Shown here piece by piece: positions 772 to 39,184 of a stretch of DNA of 64,000 bases (the first letter of the stretch is position 1; each line of letters starts with the position of its first letter). The stretch spans positions 1,324 to 65,323 of the forward strand of contig CAZJBM010000005.1 in NCBI GenBank assembly GCA_964544595.1, read 5' to 3'. This DNA is from an uncultured Barnesiella sp. Lineage in GTDB: Bacteria; Bacteroidota; Bacteroidia; Bacteroidales; Muribaculaceae. The position numbers were made by a program, and so were the translations under genes. The notes below the pieces were generated by a model, which saw only the letters and a program-made list of their open reading frames with translations, did not search any database and had not been told where the DNA came from.

Positions 772-877
772 TCTGCATGAACGGGACATGAGCCTATTCA
801 TAGATGAATACTTCACACTGAAAGCCCACATACATTACACACGCATAATCACCTGCGTGTCAACTGTCTGAACTCAA

Positions 878-913
878 TCAATCAGGAGTTCCCGCATGGG
901 AGCTTCTGATTGA
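878..913 (+). terminator. 16-bp hairpin downstream of EF-G, weak U-tract
   Basis: tcaatcaggagttccc-gcat-gggagcttctgattga; both mismatches are G-U pairs on the + strand. Confidence 0.55.
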
Positions 914-943
914 CTCTATAAGTAACTATATCGTTAACCCGCT

Positions 944-1561
944 ATGGCCATATGCAACATATTTGGTATTGACCGTCATCGACTCACTACCGATGGCGAT
1001 GGCGTAACAACTTTAGTGCTACTTCATAAGTGCCCGCTTAATTGCAAGTATTGTATCAATCCGCAATGTCAATTATCGGCCGATATCTTTCCAAGCTATA
1101 ATTCGGCGGAACTTTACGATATTGTAAAAATCGACAACATATATTTCGCAGCCACGGGAGGCGGGATAACATTCGGCGGGGGAGAGCCTGCCATGTATCC
1201 GGGCTTTATTACTGACTTATGGGCACTATGCGGCGACGTATGGAAACTCAATATTGAGACTTCGCTAAATGTTCCCGAAGAAAACATCCGACAGCTACTA
1301 CCTGTTATCAATCATTGGTATATCGACGTGAAAGATATGAACCCTCAAATCTACCGAAATTACACTGGTACCACCAACGACCGCGTGCTTCTCAATCTTG
1401 GGATTCTTAAGGAGGCAAAGGCACAATCTAAAGTTACGATTCGCCTACCGCTAATTCCCGATTTCAACTCCGAGGACGACATTATAAAAAGCAAACTACA
1501 ACTCAAGCAATTAGGATTCGACAACTTTGATATTTTTCAATACATAATACCTTCGATATGA
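944..1561 (+). CDS. Radical SAM protein, PflA / glycyl-radical-activase-like
   Basis: CPLNCKYC (CxxxCxxC), GGGITFGGGEP, IETS, IRLPLIPDFN; stop overlaps the next ATG (ATGA at 1558-1561). Confidence 0.85.
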   Translation: MAICNIFGIDRHRLTTDGDGVTTLVLLHKCPLNCKYCINPQCQLSADIFPSYNSAELYDIVKIDNIYFAATGGGITFGGGEPAMYPGFITDLWALCGDVWKLNIETSLNVPEENIRQLLPVINHWYIDVKDMNPQIYRNYTGTTNDRVLLNLGILKEAKAQSKVTIRLPLIPDFNSEDDIIKSKLQLKQLGFDNFDIFQYIIPSI

Positions 1562-2709
1562 CCAGAGGAAAGCGCACTTGCAAAATACTAAAGGATATAC
1601 GCCGGCAAATAGCTGAAGCAAACGATATACAACTAATCACCTCTGAGTGCACATACAAAGGTGACTGTCTCGGCACATGCCCGCGATGCGAAGCCGAGGT
1701 AGAATATCTTGAAAAGGAATTGGGCAAGCGACGCCGTAATGGCAAACTGGTAGCTTTGGCCGGAATCTCCATCGGCCTCCTCTCAACGAATGCCTTTGCT
1801 CAATCTTGCAATATCAACCCGGAACAGAATAAAGCGAATTTAACTACCGACTCTATAAAAAACGTATCGACCAACGTAGCTCGACAAGAAGTGATTTTTG
1901 AAGACAAGATATTCGGAGCTGACCCCTGTGTGATGCCAACTTTCCCCAATGGGGAGGCTGCACTACAGAAATTTATATCAGAAAACGGCATCTATCCTCC
2001 TGAAGCCGCTGTCGACAGCATTTCAGGACGCGTGGTTGTTCAGTTTGTCATCAAAAAGGATGGCTCAATCGGGGAAATAAAAATAGGTAGAGGTAAGCAT
2101 GATTTACTGAATAGAGAAGCCGTTAAAGTAGTGCGTAAACTACCAAACTTTAATCCCGGAAGAATTCATAGAGTTCCGCAAGACGTATGGTTTACAATGC
2201 CTATAAATTTCGGACTTGGTAATAAGGGGACAATTCATCCTGACTCAACCCTGGTTGCCGAATACTTATCAAGCCCCGAAGGGAAGAAACATATTGAGAG
2301 GAAACAAAATTCAGCAACCGGAAATGTAAGCAATGCGACCAACGAATATCCTGTTGAAAAGCCTAAATACCCAGGGGGAACAGACGCATTGATTAAAGAC
2401 TTAAAAAACAGCATTAAATACCCCGTCAAGGCCCTTAAAGATAAAATTGAGGGAAAGGTTGCAATTGTTTTTCTCGTGCTACTCGACGGCACAATCGATG
2501 ATATAAAAGTAGAGAATGACGCTAATCCCATGCTTGAAGAAGAGGTTGTGAAAGCGATTAAGACTTTAAAGACATTCAAGCCTGCCGAACTTTATGGGAT
2601 TGTCAACGAGTCTCATATAAAACTGTCGGTAAATTTCACAATTAACAAGAAAGCCTCCACCTATTCAAAGAAAGCAGGCATAATTGATATAAAAGTAATA
2701 GAGAATTAG
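1558..2709 (+). CDS. TonB C-terminal domain protein (two TonB-C domains) with N-terminal Cys-rich leader and signal/TM segment
   Basis: PTFPNGEAALQKFI..YPPEA..GRVVVQFVIKKDG and PKYPGG..YPVKA..GKVAIVFLVLLDG repeats; leader C8, C31, C37, C41, C44; KRRR plus hydrophobic stretch ending AFA-Q. Confidence 0.8.
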   Translation: MTRGKRTCKILKDIRRQIAEANDIQLITSECTYKGDCLGTCPRCEAEVEYLEKELGKRRRNGKLVALAGISIGLLSTNAFAQSCNINPEQNKANLTTDSIKNVSTNVARQEVIFEDKIFGADPCVMPTFPNGEAALQKFISENGIYPPEAAVDSISGRVVVQFVIKKDGSIGEIKIGRGKHDLLNREAVKVVRKLPNFNPGRIHRVPQDVWFTMPINFGLGNKGTIHPDSTLVAEYLSSPEGKKHIERKQNSATGNVSNATNEYPVEKPKYPGGTDALIKDLKNSIKYPVKALKDKIEGKVAIVFLVLLDGTIDDIKVENDANPMLEEEVVKAIKTLKTFKPAELYGIVNESHIKLSVNFTINKKASTYSKKAGIIDIKVIEN

Positions 2710-2720
2710 TAAGTATCGAA

Positions 2721-5033
2721 ATGAAAAAGTATATAATCGGATTAATCACTTTATCATCGGCAATATCTGGCTATGCCATTGACGCGCCGCAGAGTCAGTC
2801 CGACAAGCCGCGAATCATCATATCAACCGATATTGGTGGCACCGACCCCGACGATAATCAGTCGATGACTCATCTACTAATGTACAACAACCTCTTCGAC
2901 ATAGAGGGAATCGTTTCGTCGCCTTCTTTTGGCAACGGCAGCAAGGAGGAAATCATACGCATGATTGAGCTTTACGCCAAAGACTACCCCAAGCTTGCCT
3001 CGCGTCAGGAGGGATTTCTCTCTCCCGATTCCCTTATCGCAATCTGCAAGCAGGGTAACAAAACCGCCGCCCCCTTTGCGGGATACTCATTACTGACCGA
3101 AGGGTCGCGACATATATCGGAGTGCGCGCTCAGGGAATCTGACCGACCTCTATGGATACTTGTGTGGGGCACGCTCGACGACCTCGCGCAAGCGCTCCAC
3201 GACACCCCTGAGATAGCTTCGCGCATTCGCGTATATTACATCGGCGGCCCGAATAAGAAGTGGGGGGCCGACAGTTATGCCTATATCGCTAAAAATTTCC
3301 CCAATCTTTTCTTCATCGAGAACAACGCGTCTTATCGCGGCTTCCCATCAAGCCCCAACGCCGAGGGAATTTTCCAAAAAGACTACTACGAGACTTTTAT
3401 GCGTGGCGCGGGAGCTTTAGGCGCGGACTTCAAGAAATACTACGACGGGGTGGTAAAAATGGGGGATTCGCCGTCGCTTTTCTATCTCATGAAAGGAGAT
3501 CACGATAACCCGGAGGCTGACTCATGGGGAGGCAGATTTGAGCGCATCAGCCACTCTCCCCGCCACCAATTCAAAATCTCGGATGGGGCAAAGAATACGG
3601 CAACCACGTATTCGATCGTTGAATTCACTTTCAATGGCCCTTCAGTCAAAATTCCTACTGACTCAGCCTGCGTGACGCTCCATATCGACAAACAGGATTG
3701 GCCGGGCTATTATGCGGGAAAAGGTAAATATATAATCCGCTACAGCCCGAAGGCCCCCGGCAACCTTGAGTACACTATCACTTCACCTTTGAATGGTTTC
3801 AAGACCATCAAAGGTGAGCTTAGGGTCGAAGGCACCTTTCCAGGAGAGAGATCTAAAAACGACTACCGACTGGGCAAAAATTGGTACACCGACGTGAGCG
3901 ACCCCGCAATGGCGTCGGGCAAATGGCAGGGCGCGAAAACTATCGGCGCGCACCGAGAGGAGATTTTAAGCGACTGGGTAGAGCGACTTAACTGGATAAA
4001 GGACGACAGCATGGCCAACGCCGGAAAGAAGTCGATAAGAGTCGCCGACAGCGAGTTTTTCAAGACCGAGGAGGCGCGCCGAATCGGCAATCAGATAATT
4101 GCCTATCAACGCGCCACAGGCGGCTGGCCCAAGAACATCAATATGTCGATACCTTTCTCGGCGACCGAAGCTCAGAGCATTCTCGCCGATAAGGGTAGAA
4201 CAGATGACTCGACTACCGACAACACCGCCACAACCACACAAATATACTATCTCGCCCGGCTTTATAACGCAACAGGCGATGACGTTTACCGTAAGGGGGC
4301 TGAAGACGGGATACGCTTTCTGCTCGCCGGACAATATGATAACGGCGGCTGGCCCCAATTCTGGCCTAATCCCCACGGATACCAGATCCACATCACCTTC
4401 AACGACGACGCTATGACCAACACAATGGCACTGCTCAACCGCGTTTCGCACTCAATGGAGCCCTTCGACACCGACATTATCAGCGACGAGCTGCGACAAT
4501 CATCTAAAACGGCATTTGACAAAGGAGTGGAATGTATTCTAAAATGCCAGATTAAAGTTGACGGGAAGCCGACTGTTTGGTGCCAACAGCACGACAGAGA
4601 CACATACGCCCCTGCACCTGCAAGAGCGTTCGAGTTAGCGTCCTACTGCTCCTCGGAGAGCTCTGCTATCGTTTGGTTGCTGATGGATATACCCGACCCT
4701 TCGCAAGAAATAATCGATGCGATCGATGGCGCGATGAGATGGTTTGAAAAGTATAAGATCGAGGGAATAAGAATTGGATCAGATGGCGAAATCGACGGCA
4801 AGAAGAATCATATAGTGGTCAACGACGAGGCGGCTGAGCCTATATGGGCGCGTTTTTACGACTTGGTTGAGTGTGAGCCTATGTTTTGCGACCGCGACGG
4901 CATACCGCGCAAATCAATGGCAGAGATCGGTCCTGAACGCCGCAACGGATATTCATGGTATTCCTACGGACCGTCGTATCTCTATCCCCGATATAATGAA
5001 TGGAAATCAAAATTGACAACTAAAGCTAAATGA
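2721..5033 (+). CDS. pelA: Secreted fusion: DUF1593 (nucleoside-hydrolase-like) domain + family PL10 pectate lyase
   Basis: Signal peptide; RIIISTDIGGTDPDDNQS (DUF1593); C-half GGWPKN, TTDNTAT, DNGGWPQF, ITFNDDAM, WCQQHD, WARFY (PL10). Confidence 0.8.
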   Translation: MKKYIIGLITLSSAISGYAIDAPQSQSDKPRIIISTDIGGTDPDDNQSMTHLLMYNNLFDIEGIVSSPSFGNGSKEEIIRMIELYAKDYPKLASRQEGFLSPDSLIAICKQGNKTAAPFAGYSLLTEGSRHISECALRESDRPLWILVWGTLDDLAQALHDTPEIASRIRVYYIGGPNKKWGADSYAYIAKNFPNLFFIENNASYRGFPSSPNAEGIFQKDYYETFMRGAGALGADFKKYYDGVVKMGDSPSLFYLMKGDHDNPEADSWGGRFERISHSPRHQFKISDGAKNTATTYSIVEFTFNGPSVKIPTDSACVTLHIDKQDWPGYYAGKGKYIIRYSPKAPGNLEYTITSPLNGFKTIKGELRVEGTFPGERSKNDYRLGKNWYTDVSDPAMASGKWQGAKTIGAHREEILSDWVERLNWIKDDSMANAGKKSIRVADSEFFKTEEARRIGNQIIAYQRATGGWPKNINMSIPFSATEAQSILADKGRTDDSTTDNTATTTQIYYLARLYNATGDDVYRKGAEDGIRFLLAGQYDNGGWPQFWPNPHGYQIHITFNDDAMTNTMALLNRVSHSMEPFDTDIISDELRQSSKTAFDKGVECILKCQIKVDGKPTVWCQQHDRDTYAPAPARAFELASYCSSESSAIVWLLMDIPDPSQEIIDAIDGAMRWFEKYKIEGIRIGSDGEIDGKKNHIVVNDEAAEPIWARFYDLVECEPMFCDRDGIPRKSMAEIGPERRNGYSWYSYGPSYLYPRYNEWKSKLTTKAK

Positions 5034-10210: not shown

Positions 10211-11458
10211 TTAGCCTTTGACAGCAGCCACGCCGGGGAGCACTTTGCCCTCGATGGCTTCGAGAAGAGCGCCGCCGCCGGTAGAAACGTAGCTTACCTG
10301 ATCGGCAAGACCGAACTTGTTTACGCAAGCAACCGAGTCGCCGCCACCGACGAGCGAGAAAGCGCCCTTGTCGGTAGCCTCAACGATTGCCTCAGCGATA
10401 GCGCGAGAGCCTGCAGCGAAGTTATCGAATTCAAACACGCCGGCGGGGCCATTCCAGAGGATAGTCTTCGCATCGACGATAGCGTCGCGGAAAGCTTTGC
10501 GAGCCTCGGGGCCTGCGTCAACGCCTTCCCAGCCGTCGGGAATATCCATAACTGAAACGATCTGAGTGTTAGCGTCGTTCTTGAAATCATCAGCAGCAAC
10601 GCAGTCGGTAGCAAGCACGAGGTTCACGCCTTTTTCTTTGGCTTTGGCAATGATGTCGAGGGCGAGCTGGAGTTTATCGTTCTCGCAGATAGAGTTACCC
10701 ACTTTGCCGCCCTGAGCCTTAGCGAAAGTGTAAGTCATGCCGCCGCAGAGGATAAGATTGTCGACCTTGTCCATGAGGTTCTCGATGATACCGATTTTGG
10801 TAGACACTTTCGAGCCACCCATTATAGCGGTGAACGGACGCTTGATATCGCTGAGGATATTGTCGACTGCCTTTACCTCTTTCTCCATGAGGTAGCCAAG
10901 CATCTTGTTGTCGGCATCGAAATAGTCGGCGATAACTGCAGTGGAAGCGTGTTTACGGTGAGCGGTGCCGAATGCGTCGTTAACATAAACGTCGGCGTAT
11001 GAAGCGAGTTTTTTAGCGAATTCTTTCTGACGGGCCTTCATTTCTTTCTTGGCGTCGTCGTATGCGGGATCTTCTTTATCGATACCTACGGGCTTGCCCT
11101 CCTCTTCGGGGTAGAAGCGGAGATTTTCGAGAAGGAGCACTTCGCCGGGCTTGAGACCAGCAGCGAGCTCGGAAGCGTTGGCGCAGTCGGGAGCGAACTT
11201 CACGTCGCGGCCGAGAGCCTTAACCACAGCGTCTTTGATTTGAGCGAGCGACATTTTGGGGTTAACTTTGCCTTTGGGCTTACCCATGTGGCTCATGATA
11301 ATAAGCGAGCCGCCCTTTTCGAGGATAGCTTTAAGAGTGGGGAGCGCGCCGCGGATACGGGTGTCGTCGGTGATGTTACCGTTTTCGTCCAATGGCACGT
11401 TGAAGTCAACGCGGACGATGGCTTTTTTGCCTTCGAAATTGTAGTTGTCGATATTCAT
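10211..11458 (-). CDS. pgk: Phosphoglycerate kinase
   Basis: [50 protein letters not shown]. Confidence 0.98.
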
Positions 11459-11565
11459 TGTTCCTAAAAAAATTAAGAAATAATTGTTGTTGGGGTTGAG
11501 ATTTTCTTATTGGTCACAAATTTACAATAAAAAATGGGTTTAACGCGCACTTGAAGCGTTAAAAA

Positions 11566-12381
11566 TTACTTCATGAGCGCGGCCATCTGATCGGCGAGTT
11601 TCTTAGCCTCGCGGGCAGCCGCTTCGGCGAAGTCTTCGCCCGACGAGGCGTATATGACTCCGCGCGACGAGTTGACGAGCAACCCGCAATCGTCAATAAG
11701 CCCGCGCTTAGCCACCTCTTCCAGGCTTCCGCCCTGAGCGCCCACACCCGGCACGAGGAGAAACGAGCGGGGAGTGATACGCCTGATCTCATCAAACATC
11801 TCGGCCTGGGTGGCTCCGCACACAAACATCAGCTCATCGGGCGACGCCCAAGTCTGAGCCTTAGTCATGACGGACTCAAAGAGGGGAGTGCCCTCCTCGT
11901 TTTTGATGTGCTGAAAGTCGAGACTGCCTTTATTGGAAGTGAGGGCGAGAAGGATGACCCATTTGCCCTCATAGCCGAGAAATGGAGTCACGCTATCCTC
12001 TCCCATGTAGGGAGCGACAGTGACGGCATCAACTCCGAGGCCCTCGAACAGCGCTTTGGCATACATTTTCGAGGTATTGCCGATGTCACCTCGCTTAGCG
12101 TCGGCGATAATGAATTGGTCGGGATAGTTTTCACGGAGATATTTAACGGTTTTCTCGAGCGCTATCCAACCATCAACGCCGTAGGTTTCGTAAAAAGCGA
12201 GGTTGGGTTTATAGGCCACGCAATAGGGCGCGGTGGCGTCGATGATAGCTTTATTGAATTTAAAGATTGCATCCTCGTCGCCTTTAAGATGCTCCGGGAT
12301 TTTATTCAGGTCAACATCGAGACCGACGCAAAGAAACGATCCCTTGCGGCGTATGTTGTCAACTAATTGTTTGCGGTTCAT
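11566..12381 (-). CDS. pyrF: Orotidine-5'-phosphate decarboxylase
   Basis: [42 protein letters not shown]. Confidence 0.96.
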
Positions 12382-18788: not shown

Positions 18789-20558
18789 TTATCGCTTGAC
18801 GGAGATTAGGGCATTGCCGTTGGCAGCGGGGTTCCAGCCGTCGGCGCCGCTCAGCACTTCTTCAGGTGAATAGCCCTTAGCTGATTTGAGCTGCTTGGAG
18901 AATTTCGCTCTCTGAGCGGGGGCTGCGCCTTCACCCTTGCTTCCATACTCCATGTAGCGCGCAGTCTTTTCGTTGGACTTCTTGCCCCAGTTATGCCATC
19001 CCTCAGGTACGATATGTCGACCCATATCGCAATTGATATACACGGCCTTGGCGTAGGGTCGCCATGGGCGCGAGAGATACACCTTGTCCACGCCTGGATC
19101 GGCGGTCAGATTGCAGTCGATGAATGTGTAGCCATATTCCTGCTCCTGGTCGGTAGAGGGCGCGGTAACGTAACCGTTACCTTTGCTGTGAAGCTGACAG
19201 CGGTTGAATAGGGCGTTTGACCATCCGAATATAAAGTCAACCGTGCCCTCAATGTAGCAGTCTTCGTAATATTGACGGTCGCCTTTGCTGTAGGTGTAGA
19301 GCGTGTCCTGATTGCCGAGGAAGCGGCAGTTCTTGAAATAGTCGCGGTCGCCGCTAACGAAACAAGCCACAGCCTGACCTACCTGTCCGGCAGTATTCTC
19401 AAAGGTAATGTTCTCGGCGTAGAAATCAGGGGCATAGATATAGGCAGTTGACGAGCCGGAAGTCGACATCTCTGAGCCGAGAGAATTGAGTTTTGAAGCA
19501 TAGCCGTCGTTAGTTATCACCGCTCCGGTCTGGCCAAGAAGCGAGACGTTGATTTTCGACGGAGCGACGATAAGTTTCTCCTTATATTCACCGGGGCGCA
19601 CGAGGATAGTGGTGCGCACGTTTTTACGAAAATCGGGCACCGCATCGATAGCGTCCTGCACCGTGAAGAAATCGCCGCTGCCATCCTTAGCCACAACGAA
19701 ATCGTAATGACGTATATAGGGTTTCAGTTCGGGAACAGCCTCGCCGATAGCATCGACGGTAAGATTGGTAATCACGCGGCCACCATGGATATTGAGGTGA
19801 GTGTTATCCTCGCGTCCTTTGGGAATCGCAGCCACCGTGTTAGGCTCCACCCATACGAACAGGCTTTTGGAAGCTTCGGGACCCATCCCCTCGATAAGGT
19901 CGCGCGTTATGGCGTTCATATCCACAAATGCGACACCCATTTCGCGGGCCACGTTGCGGGGAGAGTCGAGATAAGCTCCGTGGGTGTCGATAAGTTTCGC
20001 GCCGGCGGCCACAACCTCGGGAGCGCCGTTTGGCTCGCGCTTCGCATCGGGGTTGATATAAAACGCATCGTCTTGATTGATGGCGTTGGCCAATGCGGCA
20101 GTATCGGCAGCGGCTGTGCCGAAGTTGCGACGGACAATAGAGTTGAAAAGCACAGGGATACCACCCTTTGCGCGGGTCTCGTTAACGAATTTACGCAGAT
20201 TGTCGTCGAATGTCGTGCCTGGATCGGTATGGCGGTCGGCCTTCGGCTTCTCGTCGTTGTGGCCAAACTGGATGAAGACGTAGTCGCCGGGCTGAATTTT
20301 CTCAACAACAGCATCCCAACGCCCCTCGTCGATGAAGCTTTTCGACGATCGGCCATTAACGGCATGGTTATCAACGGTAATCTCTTCGGAAAGGAATCCG
20401 GGGAGCATCTGACCCCAGCCACGCTCGGGATTGTCGCCGTCGAGTTTCTTATTGGCCATTGTCGAGTCGCCTATCATAAAGATGGTTTTAGCCTCGGCAT
20501 TGAAAATAGCGGCCAATGATAGCAATGCAGCCGCTAAAAAGGTAATTCTTTTTCTCAT
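18789..20558 (-). CDS. Fusion: SGNH/GDSL pectin acetylesterase (CE12-like) + pectin methylesterase (CE8)
   Basis: IGDSTM, GRSSKSF, QFGHND, DNTH (SGNH); VAKDGSG, GQAVA, QDTLY, GTVDFIFG, LSRPW (CE8). Confidence 0.9.
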   Translation of the reverse strand: MRKRITFLAAALLSLAAIFNAEAKTIFMIGDSTMANKKLDGDNPERGWGQMLPGFLSEEITVDNHAVNGRSSKSFIDEGRWDAVVEKIQPGDYVFIQFGHNDEKPKADRHTDPGTTFDDNLRKFVNETRAKGGIPVLFNSIVRRNFGTAAADTAALANAINQDDAFYINPDAKREPNGAPEVVAAGAKLIDTHGAYLDSPRNVAREMGVAFVDMNAITRDLIEGMGPEASKSLFVWVEPNTVAAIPKGREDNTHLNIHGGRVITNLTVDAIGEAVPELKPYIRHYDFVVAKDGSGDFFTVQDAIDAVPDFRKNVRTTILVRPGEYKEKLIVAPSKINVSLLGQTGAVITNDGYASKLNSLGSEMSTSGSSTAYIYAPDFYAENITFENTAGQVGQAVACFVSGDRDYFKNCRFLGNQDTLYTYSKGDRQYYEDCYIEGTVDFIFGWSNALFNRCQLHSKGNGYVTAPSTDQEQEYGYTFIDCNLTADPGVDKVYLSRPWRPYAKAVYINCDMGRHIVPEGWHNWGKKSNEKTARYMEYGSKGEGAAPAQRAKFSKQLKSAKGYSPEEVLSGADGWNPAANGNALISVKR

Positions 20559-25825: not shown

Positions 25826-27508
25826 ATGAGCAATACACAATCACTCGCGCCTAAGACGGTGCTTCGCAGTGGACACCAGGAATATATTATCGAGCGCGTG
25901 CTCGGAGCCGGAAGTTTCGGCATCACCTATCTGGCAAGCTCGTCGATCAGGCTTGGAAACGTCAGCATGACGGTGCATTTCGCCATAAAAGAGCATTTTA
26001 TGGATACTTGCTACCGACTTGAGGACGGGATGACCGTAAACTGCACGCCCGCGACCCGAAAGCAAACCGAAACCTCGCGCGCCGACTTCCTCACCGAAGC
26101 GAAACGTCTTCAAAAAATATGCCTCAAGGCTCCCGGCATCGTTAAGGTGAACGAGACATTTGAGGCGAACGGCACAGCTTATTACGTGATGGAGTATCTA
26201 GACGGGGGAAATCCAGAACCCATGAAGGAGCGCGACGCACTGAAGCTCATGATTCAGGTTGCCGACGCCGTTGCCGCGATCCACAGGGAGCGTATGCTTC
26301 ACCTCGATATAAAGCCCGGAAATATCGTGATGAAAACCACCGAAGAGGGAAACCACATACCCGTGCTCATCGACTTCGGCATATCGAAGCATTTCGACAG
26401 CAAAGGTCACCCGACAAGCCGCATCAAGGCAAAGGGGGTATCGGTAGGCTACGCGCCACAGGAGCAGTACTCCGAAATCAATGAATTTTCGCCCAAATAT
26501 GACGTATATGCCCTCGGAGGGGTGCTTTTCTATCTGCTGACGGGGAAAAACCCGCCGGCTGCCTTCGACATCGCGCCGAATATGGCGCAAATCGCAGAGA
26601 AGCTCCCAGCAGATGTGTCGGAAGCCACCCGCAAGGTGGTGCTCGACGCAATGCAGCCTCAAGCGTTCAACCGCACTCCCTCGGCTGAAGCCATGATAGG
26701 CCAACTCCAGCAAGCACTCATGCTTCTCGACGCGCCCAATCAACCCGCTATGCCGATACCGGCAATGCCACAACCCGCGGTTGCGAACCCCGCACCCGCA
26801 GCGATACCCAAGCCGCAGCCCAAAAGGGCTCAAGGGGGCGACAACGTGGTGGTAGCGGAAGCTGTCAGCGTAGCTCCCAAGCCCAAGGCGCAACCTAAGG
26901 CACAGGCTAAACCTAAACCTCAGCCCAAACCGCAGCCGCAGCGGGTAGCCACCGAACCGCTTACACGGGCAACCAATCGAAAAGAGAAACCCAATCAGCC
27001 GTACGGAGCGAAGCGCAAAGGAAGCAAGCTACCGCTTATAATCGGGGTATCGGTCGGAGTGGTAGTGGCGATTATCGCCGCGATAGCGTTGTCGTCGGAA
27101 AAGAAAAGTCGCCCTGTAAGCCCTGATGTGACATACACTGATAGCACGGTTGTCAACACTTCCGCACACTTCGTCTCGGAGAAAGTATTCTCTTGCCCCA
27201 ACGATTCGGGAACATTTGTCTACACCGGCCCCGTAAACTCGCAAGGACTCCCCGAAGGCAAGGGAAAAGGCGTATATGAGCTCGGCACATACGAAGGATA
27301 TTACAAAAACGGCGTTCGCGAGGGGGAAGCGATATATCGCACAAGAGATGGCTCAAACGTGTTTGAAGGCACGTACCACAACGACATGTATGACCACGGC
27401 AAACTTTATTTCCCGCTGAATGACAACATGTATTACGAAGGAACGTTCAAAAACAACGGTTTCGACGTCGGGCACACGTATAGCAGCGACGGCACCCGTA
27501 TTGATTAG
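25826..27508 (+). CDS. Hanks-type Ser/Thr protein kinase with Pro/Gln linker, TM helix and MORN-like periplasmic repeats
   Basis: LGAGSFGITY, AIKE, HLDIKPGN, DFG, YAPQE, DVYALG; C-terminal YTG..N..G.PEGKG, YEG.Y.NG.REG repeats; TATCTTTG at 25763-25770. Confidence 0.9.
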   Translation: MSNTQSLAPKTVLRSGHQEYIIERVLGAGSFGITYLASSSIRLGNVSMTVHFAIKEHFMDTCYRLEDGMTVNCTPATRKQTETSRADFLTEAKRLQKICLKAPGIVKVNETFEANGTAYYVMEYLDGGNPEPMKERDALKLMIQVADAVAAIHRERMLHLDIKPGNIVMKTTEEGNHIPVLIDFGISKHFDSKGHPTSRIKAKGVSVGYAPQEQYSEINEFSPKYDVYALGGVLFYLLTGKNPPAAFDIAPNMAQIAEKLPADVSEATRKVVLDAMQPQAFNRTPSAEAMIGQLQQALMLLDAPNQPAMPIPAMPQPAVANPAPAAIPKPQPKRAQGGDNVVVAEAVSVAPKPKAQPKAQAKPKPQPKPQPQRVATEPLTRATNRKEKPNQPYGAKRKGSKLPLIIGVSVGVVVAIIAAIALSSEKKSRPVSPDVTYTDSTVVNTSAHFVSEKVFSCPNDSGTFVYTGPVNSQGLPEGKGKGVYELGTYEGYYKNGVREGEAIYRTRDGSNVFEGTYHNDMYDHGKLYFPLNDNMYYEGTFKNNGFDVGHTYSSDGTRID

Positions 27509-36832: not shown

Positions 36833-38128
36833 TTAGGCTATACCGTTGATGATGCGAGAGACGGTAGTGCGGTTAGCCCCGATGCTGTCGGCGAATTTGC
36901 TGACGTTGCGGATAGGGTAGTGGCTATGAATGAGCTTAATGGCATCGCTCTTCGACAACTCCATCAGAGGAGCCTGCCTGGCCTTTATCACCGAGTAGAC
37001 TCTCATCGCGTTCCTCTCGAAGCAGAGCATAAGAGCGGCGGCGTCGGCCATAGTCTCGCCCGGAATGGTGAAAATCACGTCGAGATCAACCCCGTATGCC
37101 TCGTAGCCCCCTCCGGCGTAGCAGAGATTTGAGGCCACGTTGAATAGGTGGAGTATGCCGGCTATGCGCAGTATCTGTATCTGGCATTTCGAGTAGACCG
37201 AACGCTCGTAGTCGCATTTGGCCGCGTATTTCTTTACCTGGAGATCGTTATAGTATTCGATATAAACCTCTTTGGCTTCTTTGTCGGGAACGAGAGGGCG
37301 ATTAGTAGGGTTACTGAAGCGCGAAAACTCGCGGATATACGCCTCCCAGTGTTTTTGCAGCTCCTCGTTAGGCAAATCCTCGCTGTAAAGCCCATAACTC
37401 GGCGAGTCCTCGTAGTTGAAGAGAAACCTCTGGTTGAGGCCGTTGGCGAGAAACTTAGGGTCGCCAAACGCCTTGCTCAACAGAGCGGGCTGTATGTCGC
37501 CTATGATGTTCATAAACGGATTGCGTATATCCCAGGGATTATCGTCGCTCTTACGGTTGACGCTTATATCATCGCCGTCGTAGATACGGAGGAGCTTCGC
37601 GCTACCGTCAGATGCGCTATAACGGCTCATATCGTCGAAAAAGCCTTTTATCTCAGGGTAGTAACAGAGAATACCTTTAGGATTGTTGTGAATCACCTTA
37701 AGGCGGGCTTCCTCGGTAGAGTCACTGATAATAAGCTGATGACATACAGGTATAGGATCGTCAGGCCCTGCTTTTGCCTTCTCCATCTTGTATTGGTCGA
37801 TCATCTCTCGGTTTATATCAAACAGGGGAGCGAGCACCTTTCTTACGGGAGCCGTCTTGTTAGTGCCGCTCTTAGCCACGTTAACCATCCACAGCATCAA
37901 CGGATTATCATACTTGCCGTCATATACATGAACCTTGTTTCCTATCACCGACGATGCGGCTACCAACACAGCCGACGTCACGAAATCTCTCGGGCACTGA
38001 TACGTATAAGCAATATCGGCTATGAACTGACTTATCTTCCCCGGAAATACCTCTATAGGTAGCTCTTCAAGAAAACCGCCGCCGCAGGCAGTATCCACCT
38101 CATTAATCTTATCTTTCTCCATATTCAC
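36833..38128 (-). CDS. DUF3987 (YfjI-like) protein with C-terminal HTH, typical of integrative elements
   Basis: LPIEVFP, LWMVNVAKSGTNKT, ISDSTEEA, PKGIL, IIGDIQP, GLNQRFLF; C-terminal SKFADSIGANRTTVSRII. Confidence 0.75.
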   Translation of the reverse strand: MNMEKDKINEVDTACGGGFLEELPIEVFPGKISQFIADIAYTYQCPRDFVTSAVLVAASSVIGNKVHVYDGKYDNPLMLWMVNVAKSGTNKTAPVRKVLAPLFDINREMIDQYKMEKAKAGPDDPIPVCHQLIISDSTEEARLKVIHNNPKGILCYYPEIKGFFDDMSRYSASDGSAKLLRIYDGDDISVNRKSDDNPWDIRNPFMNIIGDIQPALLSKAFGDPKFLANGLNQRFLFNYEDSPSYGLYSEDLPNEELQKHWEAYIREFSRFSNPTNRPLVPDKEAKEVYIEYYNDLQVKKYAAKCDYERSVYSKCQIQILRIAGILHLFNVASNLCYAGGGYEAYGVDLDVIFTIPGETMADAAALMLCFERNAMRVYSVIKARQAPLMELSKSDAIKLIHSHYPIRNVSKFADSIGANRTTVSRIINGIA

Positions 38129-38355: not shown

Positions 38356-38482
38356 CGGGGCAGAAATGTTTGGATAATTGGTTAATAATTAGTAACTTCG
38401 CGGTGCTTTTGAATAAAGCTCCCGTGTGATGGGAAATTAAGAACTACTTAATTTTGAGTAACACAATTAATCAAATTCAATC

Positions 38483-39136
38483 ATGAACACTTACAAACTC
38501 GCAGCCGAGCCCCGCACCGACCTCGGCAAGAAAGCAACCAAAGCTCTCCGCGCCGAAGGTAAAATCCCCGCAGTGATCAACGGCGGCGAAATCGTAGAAC
38601 TCCCCTTCAACGGCACTCTCGCCCCCGGCCAGAAACTCGTTGAAATCGAAGACGGCAAAGGTATCATCACTACCGACATCACCCTCACTCAGGAGGGCGT
38701 GCGCAAACTCATCTACACCCCCGACATCTACGCAGTGGAAATCGACATGAACGGCAACAAGAAAATGGCCGTGCTCAAAGAAGTGCAGTTCCACCCCGTG
38801 AAAGACACCGTGCTCCATATCGACTTCCTCGAAGTAGGCGACAAGAAGCCCGTTGTTGTTGAGGTTCCCGTTAAGCTCGAAGGCCACGCCGAAGGTGTTA
38901 AAGCCGGCGGTAAGCTCTCGCTCTCGATGAAGAAACTCAAAGTTCGCGCCATATATACCGAAATCCCCGAGCGCCTCATCATCAATGTCGACCACCTCGG
39001 TCTCGGCAAGAGCCTCGCGGTCGGCGACCTCCACTTCGAGGGTCTCGAACTCGTCAACGCTAAGAACGCAGTCGTTTGCGCCGTTCAGCTCACCCGCGCC
39101 GCCCGCGGTCAGCAGGCTGCCGCAGCCAACGCTTAA
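38483..39136 (+). CDS. rplY: 50S ribosomal protein L25 / Ctc
   Basis: GKKATKALRAEGKIPAV, KEVQFHPVKD..LHIDF, EGVKAGG; TAACTTCG at 38393-38400. Confidence 0.96.
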   Translation: MNTYKLAAEPRTDLGKKATKALRAEGKIPAVINGGEIVELPFNGTLAPGQKLVEIEDGKGIITTDITLTQEGVRKLIYTPDIYAVEIDMNGNKKMAVLKEVQFHPVKDTVLHIDFLEVGDKKPVVVEVPVKLEGHAEGVKAGGKLSLSMKKLKVRAIYTEIPERLIINVDHLGLGKSLAVGDLHFEGLELVNAKNAVVCAVQLTRAARGQQAAAANA

Positions 39137-39184
39137 TAAGCCCCGACGGCTCACGACTTATTTTACAACATCGTCTATAACATC

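Follow-up and report, generated by a model that had tools for sequence, protein, structure and literature searches.

Results

Organization of the locus

The DNA considered here is a stretch of 64,000 nucleotides (nt) from an uncultured Barnesiella sp. (assembly GCA_964544595.1, contig CAZJBM010000005.1, positions 1,324 to 65,323 of the forward strand), the whole of which we call the window, and the subject of this study is a pair of genes near its start. The first gene encodes a minimal radical S-adenosylmethionine (SAM) enzyme of the type of PflA, the activating enzyme of pyruvate formate lyase (PFL). The second encodes what we call the pre-protein, in which an N-terminal head with five cysteines is followed by a predicted signal peptide, a linker, and two TonB_C domains. 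The end of the enzyme gene (...tcg ata TGA) and the start of the pre-protein gene (ATG acc aga) share an ATGA, an arrangement indicative of translational coupling. An initial annotation, made from the sequence alone, had reported a 205-amino-acid (aa) activase-type radical SAM gene in ATGA overlap with a 383-aa gene and had read the product of the latter as a Cys leader followed by a basic cluster, then a hydrophobic segment, and lastly two TonB_C domains. Both open reading frames (ORFs) and the overlap were confirmed, and the residues and Pfam matches bear out the build that it described. The features of the pair are the following, in window coordinates.

944..1561, + strand: gene for the minimal PflA-type radical SAM enzyme, 205 aa
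989..1012, + strand: TDGDGVTT loop (aa 16-23 of the enzyme), aligning with the DGPGIR loop of PflA; D17, G18, and G20 are invariant in the family
1031..1054, + strand: CPLNCKYC (aa 30-37), the CX3CX2C radical SAM [4Fe-4S] motif; C30, C34, and C37 are invariant
1157..1186, + strand: GGGITFGGGE (aa 72-81), region of the SAM-binding "GGE" motif, by alignment to PflA; invariant in the family
1558..1561, + strand: ATGA overlap, enzyme stop codon and pre-protein start codon
1558..2709, + strand: gene for the pre-protein, 383 aa (Cys head, predicted signal peptide, linker, two TonB_C domains)
1558..1731, + strand: five-Cys head (aa 1-58 of the pre-protein), modelled as helix 2-21, Cys/Gly loop 22-41, and helix 42-60
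1666..1689, + strand: Cys knuckle C37-L-G39-T-C41-P-R-C44, spaced as CX3CX2C and containing an invariant Gly; one candidate for the target or for a metal site
1723..1746, + strand: basic n-region GKRRRNGK (aa 56-63); family median net charge +2
1747..1782, + strand: h-region LVALAGISIGLL (aa 64-75), 12 residues, with G69-x3-G73 in the window
1783..1803, + strand: c-region STNAFA, with a signal peptidase I site predicted by pattern at A81|Q82 (cut at nt 1800/1801)
1906..1926, + strand: KIFGADP, a near-variant of the post-cleavage motif described below; a related genome has NVFGAAP
1933..2223, + strand: TonB_C domain 1 (about aa 126-222; Pfam stretch 146-220), with an AlphaFold2 predicted local distance difference test score (pLDDT) above 90
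2353..2643, + strand: TonB_C domain 2 (about aa 266-362), with a YPGG motif at aa 271-274 (Pfam, NCBIfam, AlphaFold2)

Linkage of the enzyme to the head, and distribution

A profile of the head was built and then used to survey 91 genes for the enzyme in fetched loci. The head gene lay immediately downstream of 64 and immediately upstream of 9, and in a further 10 cases it was elsewhere in the locus, usually one gene off; three enzyme genes stood at contig ends and were uninformative, and five had no head gene. The head gene is present, that is, in 83 of the 88 informative loci selected by the enzyme, and in related loci it starts within a few nt of the enzyme stop codon, most commonly overlapping it by 4 nt or leaving a gap of 2 nt. 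For the reverse test, 80 metagenomic loci were picked by the head alone: the enzyme gene was found in 65 at a median distance of 12 nt, 7 were without it, and 8 were uninformative (65 of 72 informative loci). When the flanking genes of 83 non-redundant loci were clustered, the head family was the sole recurrent one, in 69 loci, with every other family in 9 or fewer. The pairing of this enzyme with the head gene is beyond chance. The neighbourhood survey thus showed neither a radical SAM subfamily living mostly apart from the head gene nor one sitting beside glycyl-radical enzymes, the two patterns that the initial annotation had set against its own proposal. From one to five head genes accompany an enzyme gene in a locus, as expected for a maturase with several substrates.

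The enzyme family, with members of about 206 aa, accounts for 7,791 of the 8,000 candidates scored and occurs in at least 568 matching stretches of a species-representative genome collection. Carriers include Muribaculaceae, Bacteroides, Phocaeicola, Prevotella/Segatella, Barnesiella, Odoribacter, Paludibacteraceae, and others, and the two-gene cassette is common in mouse and human gut Bacteroidales. It also occurs in three Firmicutes contexts: a 58-kb contig (L181) with the gene order phoH, 7TMR-HD, ybeY/cdd, era, then HU and mazG, and two metagenome-assembled genomes (MAGs) labelled Clostridia (L182 and L178). In all three, the partner gene directly abuts an enzyme gene whose product scores 241 bits against the family profile, and it encodes a protein of 137-160 aa made of the head, a lipobox, and an acidic tail of 65-80 residues with no folded domain. 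Four other carrier MAGs (L013, L032, L039, and L070) are labelled Staphylococcus, Bacillota, or Eubacteriales, labels that are probably binning or naming errors, unlike the three Firmicutes contexts above. L013, L032, and L070 carry a Bacteroidales-type enzyme (52-57% identical) together with head proteins, L070 falling outside the clusters of the family's cargo regions; the survey of L039 covered the enzyme and the adjoining 272-aa head gene.

The radical SAM enzyme

Pfam matches the enzyme to Radical_SAM (7e-16) and Fer4_12 and to no other family. Its best NCBIfam match is TIGR02494, a subfamily of glycyl-radical-enzyme activases, at 137.4 bits against a cut-off of 174.35; TIGR02493 (PflA) gives 82.5 bits against 231.75, and the enzyme scores far under the cut-off of every substrate-specific activase equivalog in NCBIfam. 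The family profile aligns from aa 16 to 184 with aa 14-182 of E. coli PflA (3C8F, E=9e-23), which brings into register the DGxG loop, the CX3CX2C motif, GGGE, and D-x-K-x-M-N, retained in the family as a D-x-K-D-M-N stretch. The enzyme therefore has its fold class and motifs in common with PflA (PDB 3C8F and 3CB8) and the activases of TIGR02493 and TIGR02494, and would be expected to act upon a partner protein, as they do. Its C-terminus, however, is about 40 residues shorter than that of PflA, and it lacks the ferredoxin insert of most non-PflA activases, around which the NCBIfam matches break into two stretches. Neither a SPASM/twitch auxiliary Fe-S domain nor a recognition element (RRE) domain of the kind that binds ribosomally synthesized peptides that are modified after translation (RiPPs) was found in its 205 residues by Pfam or NCBIfam, the SPASM-type families matching weakly within the N-terminal core (E 5e-4 or worse). 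Among the PADLOC defence-system models, the enzyme core shows a generic weak similarity to pVip (E=4.5e-6, N-terminal 60 residues), and the head proteins match none.

The resemblance to activases raises the question of whether the enzyme is a spare activase for a distant PFL, NrdD, or other glycyl-radical enzyme, its adjacency to a TonB_C gene being incidental. Its best family matches are indeed glycyl-radical-enzyme activases and PflA, and some database sources label relatives "pyruvate formate lyase activating enzyme". The scores far under the equivalog cut-offs argue against this explanation, as does the linkage to the head gene, which is about 90% whichever of the two genes is used for selection and extends over Bacteroidales families and into Firmicutes. 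As the initial annotation had stated, the window holds no glycyl-radical enzyme: the R[VIL]xG[YFW] fingerprint is absent from every retained ORF of at least 120 aa, and Pfam finds no such domain in the ten largest other ORFs of the window, which rules out a hidden one there. Across the 83 loci no glycyl-radical enzyme family is recurrent, and none is listed in the Pfam-annotated neighbourhoods. We therefore regard a spare activase as very improbable. The partner of this enzyme, in contrast to that of the glycyl-radical-enzyme activases, appears to be an N-terminal extension of the signal peptide of a secreted protein.

The five-Cys head

In an exhaustive profile search, 2,899 protein clusters (50% identity) were seen to carry the head at E<=0.001. 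Among the 150 matches listed, it begins at or near residue 1 in nearly all, with one beginning at residue 96, and the proteins that bear it are 87-473 aa long. The cysteines of the window pre-protein are at positions 8, 31, 37, 41, and 44. In 148 representatives, clustered at 50% identity or less, C8, L11, I14, I18, A19, N22, I24, C31, C37, G39, C41, P42, C44, E47, and L51 are invariant, and G4, K5, R15, E30, G35, D36, and T40 are conserved in at least 90%. AlphaFold2 models the head as a helical hairpin with a 20-residue Cys/Gly loop (pLDDT about 71-90; mean of 80 over the whole pre-protein). There is no Pfam or NCBIfam model for it and no relative in the PDB (best sequence match E=1, best Foldseek match E=5.6). 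The C37-x3-C41-x2-C44 spacing is that of the radical SAM cluster motif, a faint zinc-ribbon match falls on the CPxC knuckle (E=0.024), and the head may bind a metal, as Zn or Fe-S. We also considered a zinc-binding anti-sigma factor (ZAS, HxxxCxxC) and rejected it: the head has no invariant His and no Pfam match, and a gene for an extracytoplasmic function (ECF) sigma factor is near 7 of the 83 loci.

A metal site would suit a head that is an accessory rather than a substrate, namely a metal or Fe-S module and tether that recruits or regulates the enzyme at the membrane or the Sec translocon, with another molecule as the true substrate, or else a device that gates export. Four Cys with a CPxC knuckle and a spacing of CX3CX2C point to a site for a metal or cluster, the enzyme is without the ferredoxin insert of most non-PflA activases, and intact orphan head genes exist, all of which would fit such a role. 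Nevertheless, up to five head proteins per enzyme is the pattern of substrates and not of a subunit, and the 83 loci contain no third conserved gene that could be the true substrate or a pathway partner. We consider an accessory head unlikely.

The initial annotation also stated that the leader occurs on other periplasmic domains and as a stand-alone peptide beside similar radical SAM genes. The first statement was correct, since CarbopepD_reg_2 is the cargo of 33 of 99 head proteins from genome loci and of 34 of the 148 representatives. The second found no support in Bacteroidales, where the three short proteins examined (P0145, P0147, and P0173) are products of split genes, the missing domain being encoded in the ORF directly after each. 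The Firmicutes versions are short, yet they too have a signal peptide and a tail. In L096/L097 (4001-4944), the P0173 gene consists of two ORFs with a 4-nt overlap, one of 80 aa for the head and one of 234 aa for CarbopepD_reg_2; since at least 17 contigs show this split, it is a real, widespread allele and not an assembly error.

A predicted signal peptide behind the head

In the window pre-protein, the hydrophobic segment and the residues after it read LVALAGISIGLL-STNAFA|QS, and the orthologue in a related Muribaculaceae genome (L090) reads ...STSVSA|QS at the same place. Cleavage sites were called by sequence pattern in 234 family proteins. A lipobox follows the hydrophobic segment in 119 of them (e.g., AGISAGMILMSG|CSGTSS), at a median of 16 residues past the last basic residue, and a small-x-small|Q site is present in 58 (e.g., MPMTSEA|QTP), at a median of 22 residues past that point; near-variants of one or the other are seen in most of the rest. 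By a rough estimate, a lipobox would occur by chance in about 1-2% of such tails. Gln at position +1 is typical of signal peptidase I substrates in Bacteroidota. Because a lipobox or a small-x-small|Q site follows it, we read the hydrophobic segment as a cleavable signal peptide and not as a membrane anchor, and the whole from the head through the basic cluster and h-region to the c-region resembles a Sec signal peptide extended by 58 residues at its N-terminus. Judging from these patterns, head and cargo are probably separated by signal peptidase. It is then likely that the mature TonB_C protein is soluble in the window organism and lipid-anchored in most relatives, and that a head-plus-helix peptide of about 80 residues is left in the inner membrane.

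Conserved functional modules placed before or within a Sec signal peptide have precedents in the ESPR extension of autotransporters and in the enterococcal pheromones, which are cut from lipoprotein signal peptides. Those systems, however, have neither a Cys-rich folded head nor an associated radical SAM enzyme.

Exchangeable cargo and the TonB question

The two TonB_C stretches of the window pre-protein match Pfam at 2.5e-28 (98.8 bits), and both domains are modelled by AlphaFold2 at high confidence. Across the family, TonB_C is the cargo of 52 of the 99 head proteins from genome loci and of 74 of the 148 representatives, and some head proteins carry three TonB_C domains, or TonB_C with a CarbopepD-like domain. 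Given the CarbopepD_reg_2 cargo and the Firmicutes versions without any folded cargo, the constant parts of the system are the enzyme, the head, and the signal peptide, and not TonB_C. The same types and combinations of cargo, including two or three TonB_C domains or TonB_C with a CarbopepD-like domain, are found in TonB paralogues of Bacteroides, such as TonB7, 9, 10, and 11 of B. thetaiotaomicron, which have two TonB_C domains or CarbopepD_reg_2; the paper that describes them mentions neither a Cys head nor a radical SAM neighbour (PMC10350073). TonB paralogues also differ in having a membrane helix paired with ExbBD, where the N-terminus of the head proteins looks cleavable instead. As cleavage would remove the membrane helix, the mature TonB_C protein is likely not a TonB energised by ExbBD, and no exbB or exbD gene recurs near the cassette across the 83 loci.

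The initial annotation had proposed that the pre-protein stays anchored as a TonB-like trans-envelope transducer, whose cytoplasmic Cys domain is modified or loaded by the enzyme and couples redox or iron state to TonB-dependent uptake. The topology of a cytoplasmic head, a hydrophobic segment, and periplasmic TonB_C domains does resemble that of anti-sigma or TonB proteins, and TonB_C and CarbopepD_reg_2 are also the cargo of the Bacteroides TonB paralogues (PMC10350073). The h-region is unusually conserved, with G69 and S71 present in at least 90% of the family, and 7 of 83 loci have an ECF sigma gene close to the cassette. On the other side, a lipobox or small-x-small|Q site stands at signal-peptide distance in at least 177 of 234 members, the h-region of the window protein has 12 residues only, exbB and exbD are not recurrent nearby, and the cargo is exchangeable, down to Firmicutes versions without any TonB_C. 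Such a transducer is, in our assessment, quite unlikely. The cleavage motifs and the exchangeable cargo thus leave unsupported the single polypeptide that was to join the cytoplasmic Cys domain to TonB-dependent uptake. What did hold is the leader protein as the partner of the enzyme: it is the constant partner, it is linked in both directions of the test, and its leader is reused on other cargo.

Selection and history

In L090, the gene order is EF-G, the radical SAM gene, a gene for a 376-aa protein with two TonB_C domains, and then ABC, MlaE, and uridine-kinase genes. Because it is syntenic in that genome, where the enzyme is 76% identical, the pair is old and chromosomal in the lineage of the window. 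In comparison with L090, the ratio of nonsynonymous to synonymous substitution rates (dN/dS) is 0.14 for the enzyme and 0.063 for the head (aa 1-58), which is 86% identical. The TonB_C domains are 41-47% identical, with a dN/dS of 0.25 for domain 1 and saturated synonymous sites (dS) for domain 2. The head is far more constrained than the mature protein, the reverse of the usual pattern for signal peptides, which argues that it has a function of its own.

A glycine motif past the predicted cleavage site

A second conserved motif, hydrophobic-x-G-[E/D]-[P/I/V], lies in a disordered acidic stretch 10-40 residues past the predicted cleavage site. The lipobox/TonB_C class has, for example, TLQGEP, the CarbopepD class (L/M)KGS(I/V)P, and the Firmicutes proteins LMGDIP and LDGEV. 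The strict form occurs in 57 of 106 lipobox-class tails (<50% identity), compared with 4.0 +/- 1.9 in 500 shuffles (maximum 12), and a looser form in 138 of 234 proteins of all classes, compared with 30 +/- 5 in shuffles. The hydrophobic-x-Gly recalls the RVxG[FWY] site of glycyl-radical enzymes. One possibility, by analogy with RiPP leader logic, is that this Gly is the one attacked by the enzyme, with the head as a docking domain; another is that the motif is a periplasmic sorting or binding signal unrelated to the enzyme.

Genomic surroundings

The initial annotation had also noted that the pair looks more AT-rich than its neighbours, and this is borne out by a GC content of 0.424, compared with 0.556 for the EF-G2 gene, 0.509 for the pectate-lyase gene, and 0.511 for the window. 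Recent insertion of the pair is ruled out by the synteny with L090; the difference between the two genomes is the pectate-lyase gene, which encodes a 770-aa fusion of Sde182 nucleoside-hydrolase-like, DUF5060, and pectate lyase parts (window 2721-5033), begins 11 nt past the pair, and is absent at this place in L090. It looks like a lineage-specific insertion. Between the EF-G2 gene and the radical SAM gene, a long imperfect inverted repeat (TCAATCAGGAG...CTTCTGATTGA) at window 872-915 may be the EF-G2 terminator, and no sigma-70-like promoter was found upstream of the radical SAM gene in the window. Further along the window are a pectinesterase/GDSL gene (18789-20558) and a gene for a 560-aa protein with a eukaryotic-type Ser/Thr protein kinase domain (25826-27508). 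A DUF3987 gene and an adjoining small gene (36833-38128 and 38477-39154) lie amid housekeeping genes (ClpB, GyrA); DUF3987 is typical of primase/helicase-like genes of mobile elements, and the two may be what is left of an integrated element.

The cassette of many Bacteroides and Muribaculaceae loci has mobilisation genes next to it and stands at the start of a run of small genes in the same direction. In L001 (3826-12477), and also in L004-L009, L010, L014, and L063, a divergent gene for a 516-aa relaxase-like protein with a faint MobA/VirD2 match precedes the cassette, and long runs of small, low-GC, co-directional genes follow it. The immunity-type families in such runs include Imm44, Imm32, CdiI_3, DUF2750, DUF1877, DMP19, DKNYY, and ankyrin. 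The runs resemble orphan-immunity islands, though without a XerD recombinase, the gene by which rAID-1 is defined; the description of rAID-1 does not mention a module of radical SAM enzyme and head. Downstream of the cassette, 18 of 54 loci have three or more co-directional genes and 32 of 54 have none or one, so that the run is the context of about a third of loci, the window not among them. The cassette as part of a larger system, such as a rAID-type immunity island or a mobile element, was rejected on the grounds that these contexts hold for a subset of loci and that no flanking family is recurrent.

Other settings were also seen. On a Segatella copri plasmid, the cassette adjoins relaxase, MobC, and integrase genes, and its annotation there goes no further than "energy transducer TonB" (two genes) and "radical SAM protein". 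Three Bacteroides loci (L059, L067, and L095) have it between two very large helicase/nuclease genes (UvrD-helicase and PD-(D/E)XK type, AddAB-like). In L026, L041, L047, L053 (about 10600-11607), L064, and L080, an extra gene at times lies between the radical SAM gene and the first head gene, and its product is either a multi-pass membrane protein of 333-335 aa that has a DMP19-like domain or a DKNYY-family lipoprotein of 377-388 aa.

Discussion

We propose, with a probability of roughly one half, that the radical SAM enzyme acts in the cytoplasm on the co-encoded pre-protein or pre-proteins, which it recognises through the head, before Sec export and cleavage by signal peptidase. The two genes would then form a self-contained cassette. 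The head would dock the unexported pre-protein onto the enzyme, which would cleave SAM and, in the manner of an activase, take the backbone C-alpha hydrogen from a conserved glycine of the pre-protein. Since the enzyme resembles PflA, this is the most economical chemistry to assume. The candidate glycines are Gly39 in the C37-x-G-x-C41-P-x-C44 knuckle and the Gly of the hydrophobic-x-G-[E/D]-[P/I/V] motif, and possible products are a radical on the protein, a thioether link to a nearby Cys, and a cleaved backbone. The cargo would next be exported by Sec, and signal peptidase I or II would cut past the h-region to release a soluble or lipid-anchored periplasmic protein, with two TonB_C domains in the case of the window, while the head-plus-helix peptide of about 80 residues would remain in the inner membrane. 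Our analysis shows the two-way gene linkage, a head shared by different cargoes, motifs like those of PflA, cleavage motifs of the signal-peptide type, and the strong constraint on the head; from these sequence features we infer the binding or modification of the head, the residue attacked, the product, and cleavage itself.

Several observations weigh against this proposal. The enzyme scores under the cut-off of all curated activase families. In the PflA structure literature, DGxGxR is the N-terminal motif of the activase that binds the glycine loop, and its Arg is replaced by Thr in our enzyme, while D-G-x-G is invariant. Known radical SAM enzymes that crosslink Cys carry auxiliary clusters, and the 205-aa enzyme is without them. 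If its four loop Cys are metal-bound, the head could be a poor substrate, and the strict glycine motif is found in about half of the tails, the window pre-protein having the near-variant KIFGADP only. The cleavage sites were read from patterns and not from a trained predictor. Finally, about 10% of head genes have no enzyme gene within reach and are still intact, the decay that was looked for in such genes not being seen, and about 5% of the enzyme genes have no head gene nearby, as in B. cellulosilyticus L068.

Among known systems, the maturases of SCIFF/ranthipeptides and sactipeptides come close, being radical SAM enzymes whose genes, as here, lie beside those for one or more small Cys-rich targets in which a recognition part is conserved and the rest varies. 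They differ in having SPASM/twitch domains and often an RRE, both missing from our enzyme, and their precursors are short cytoplasmic peptides with dedicated transporters, whereas the partners described here are Sec pre-proteins with a lipobox or a signal peptidase I site. A radical SAM enzyme with a dedicated protein partner is a known kind of system; what is new here is a partner that consists of a signal peptide's N-terminal extension. No curated family for the head or for this branch of the enzyme exists in Pfam, NCBIfam, or PADLOC, and no published description of the cassette was found in the open-access full-text literature; an earlier one may exist outside open access.

PflA-type activases are the textbook partners of glycyl-radical enzymes, and yet this large and conserved radical SAM branch pairs with a different and unexpected partner. 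The label "energy transducer TonB" given to head proteins is probably wrong, as they look like secreted or lipid-anchored TonB_C proteins. More tentatively, we suggest that hundreds of species of gut Bacteroidales and some Firmicutes use a PflA-like enzyme to modify, or place a radical on, a Sec pre-protein by way of the five-Cys head, which would be both a new substrate class and a functional extension of the signal peptide; the modified product would be either the head peptide retained in the membrane or the glycine-modified N-terminus of the exported lipoprotein. With its two genes, the cassette is small enough to be tested directly by co-expression. If the enzyme does act on the pre-protein before export, radical SAM chemistry would gain a new class of substrates, and the N-terminal extension of a signal peptide would gain a role.

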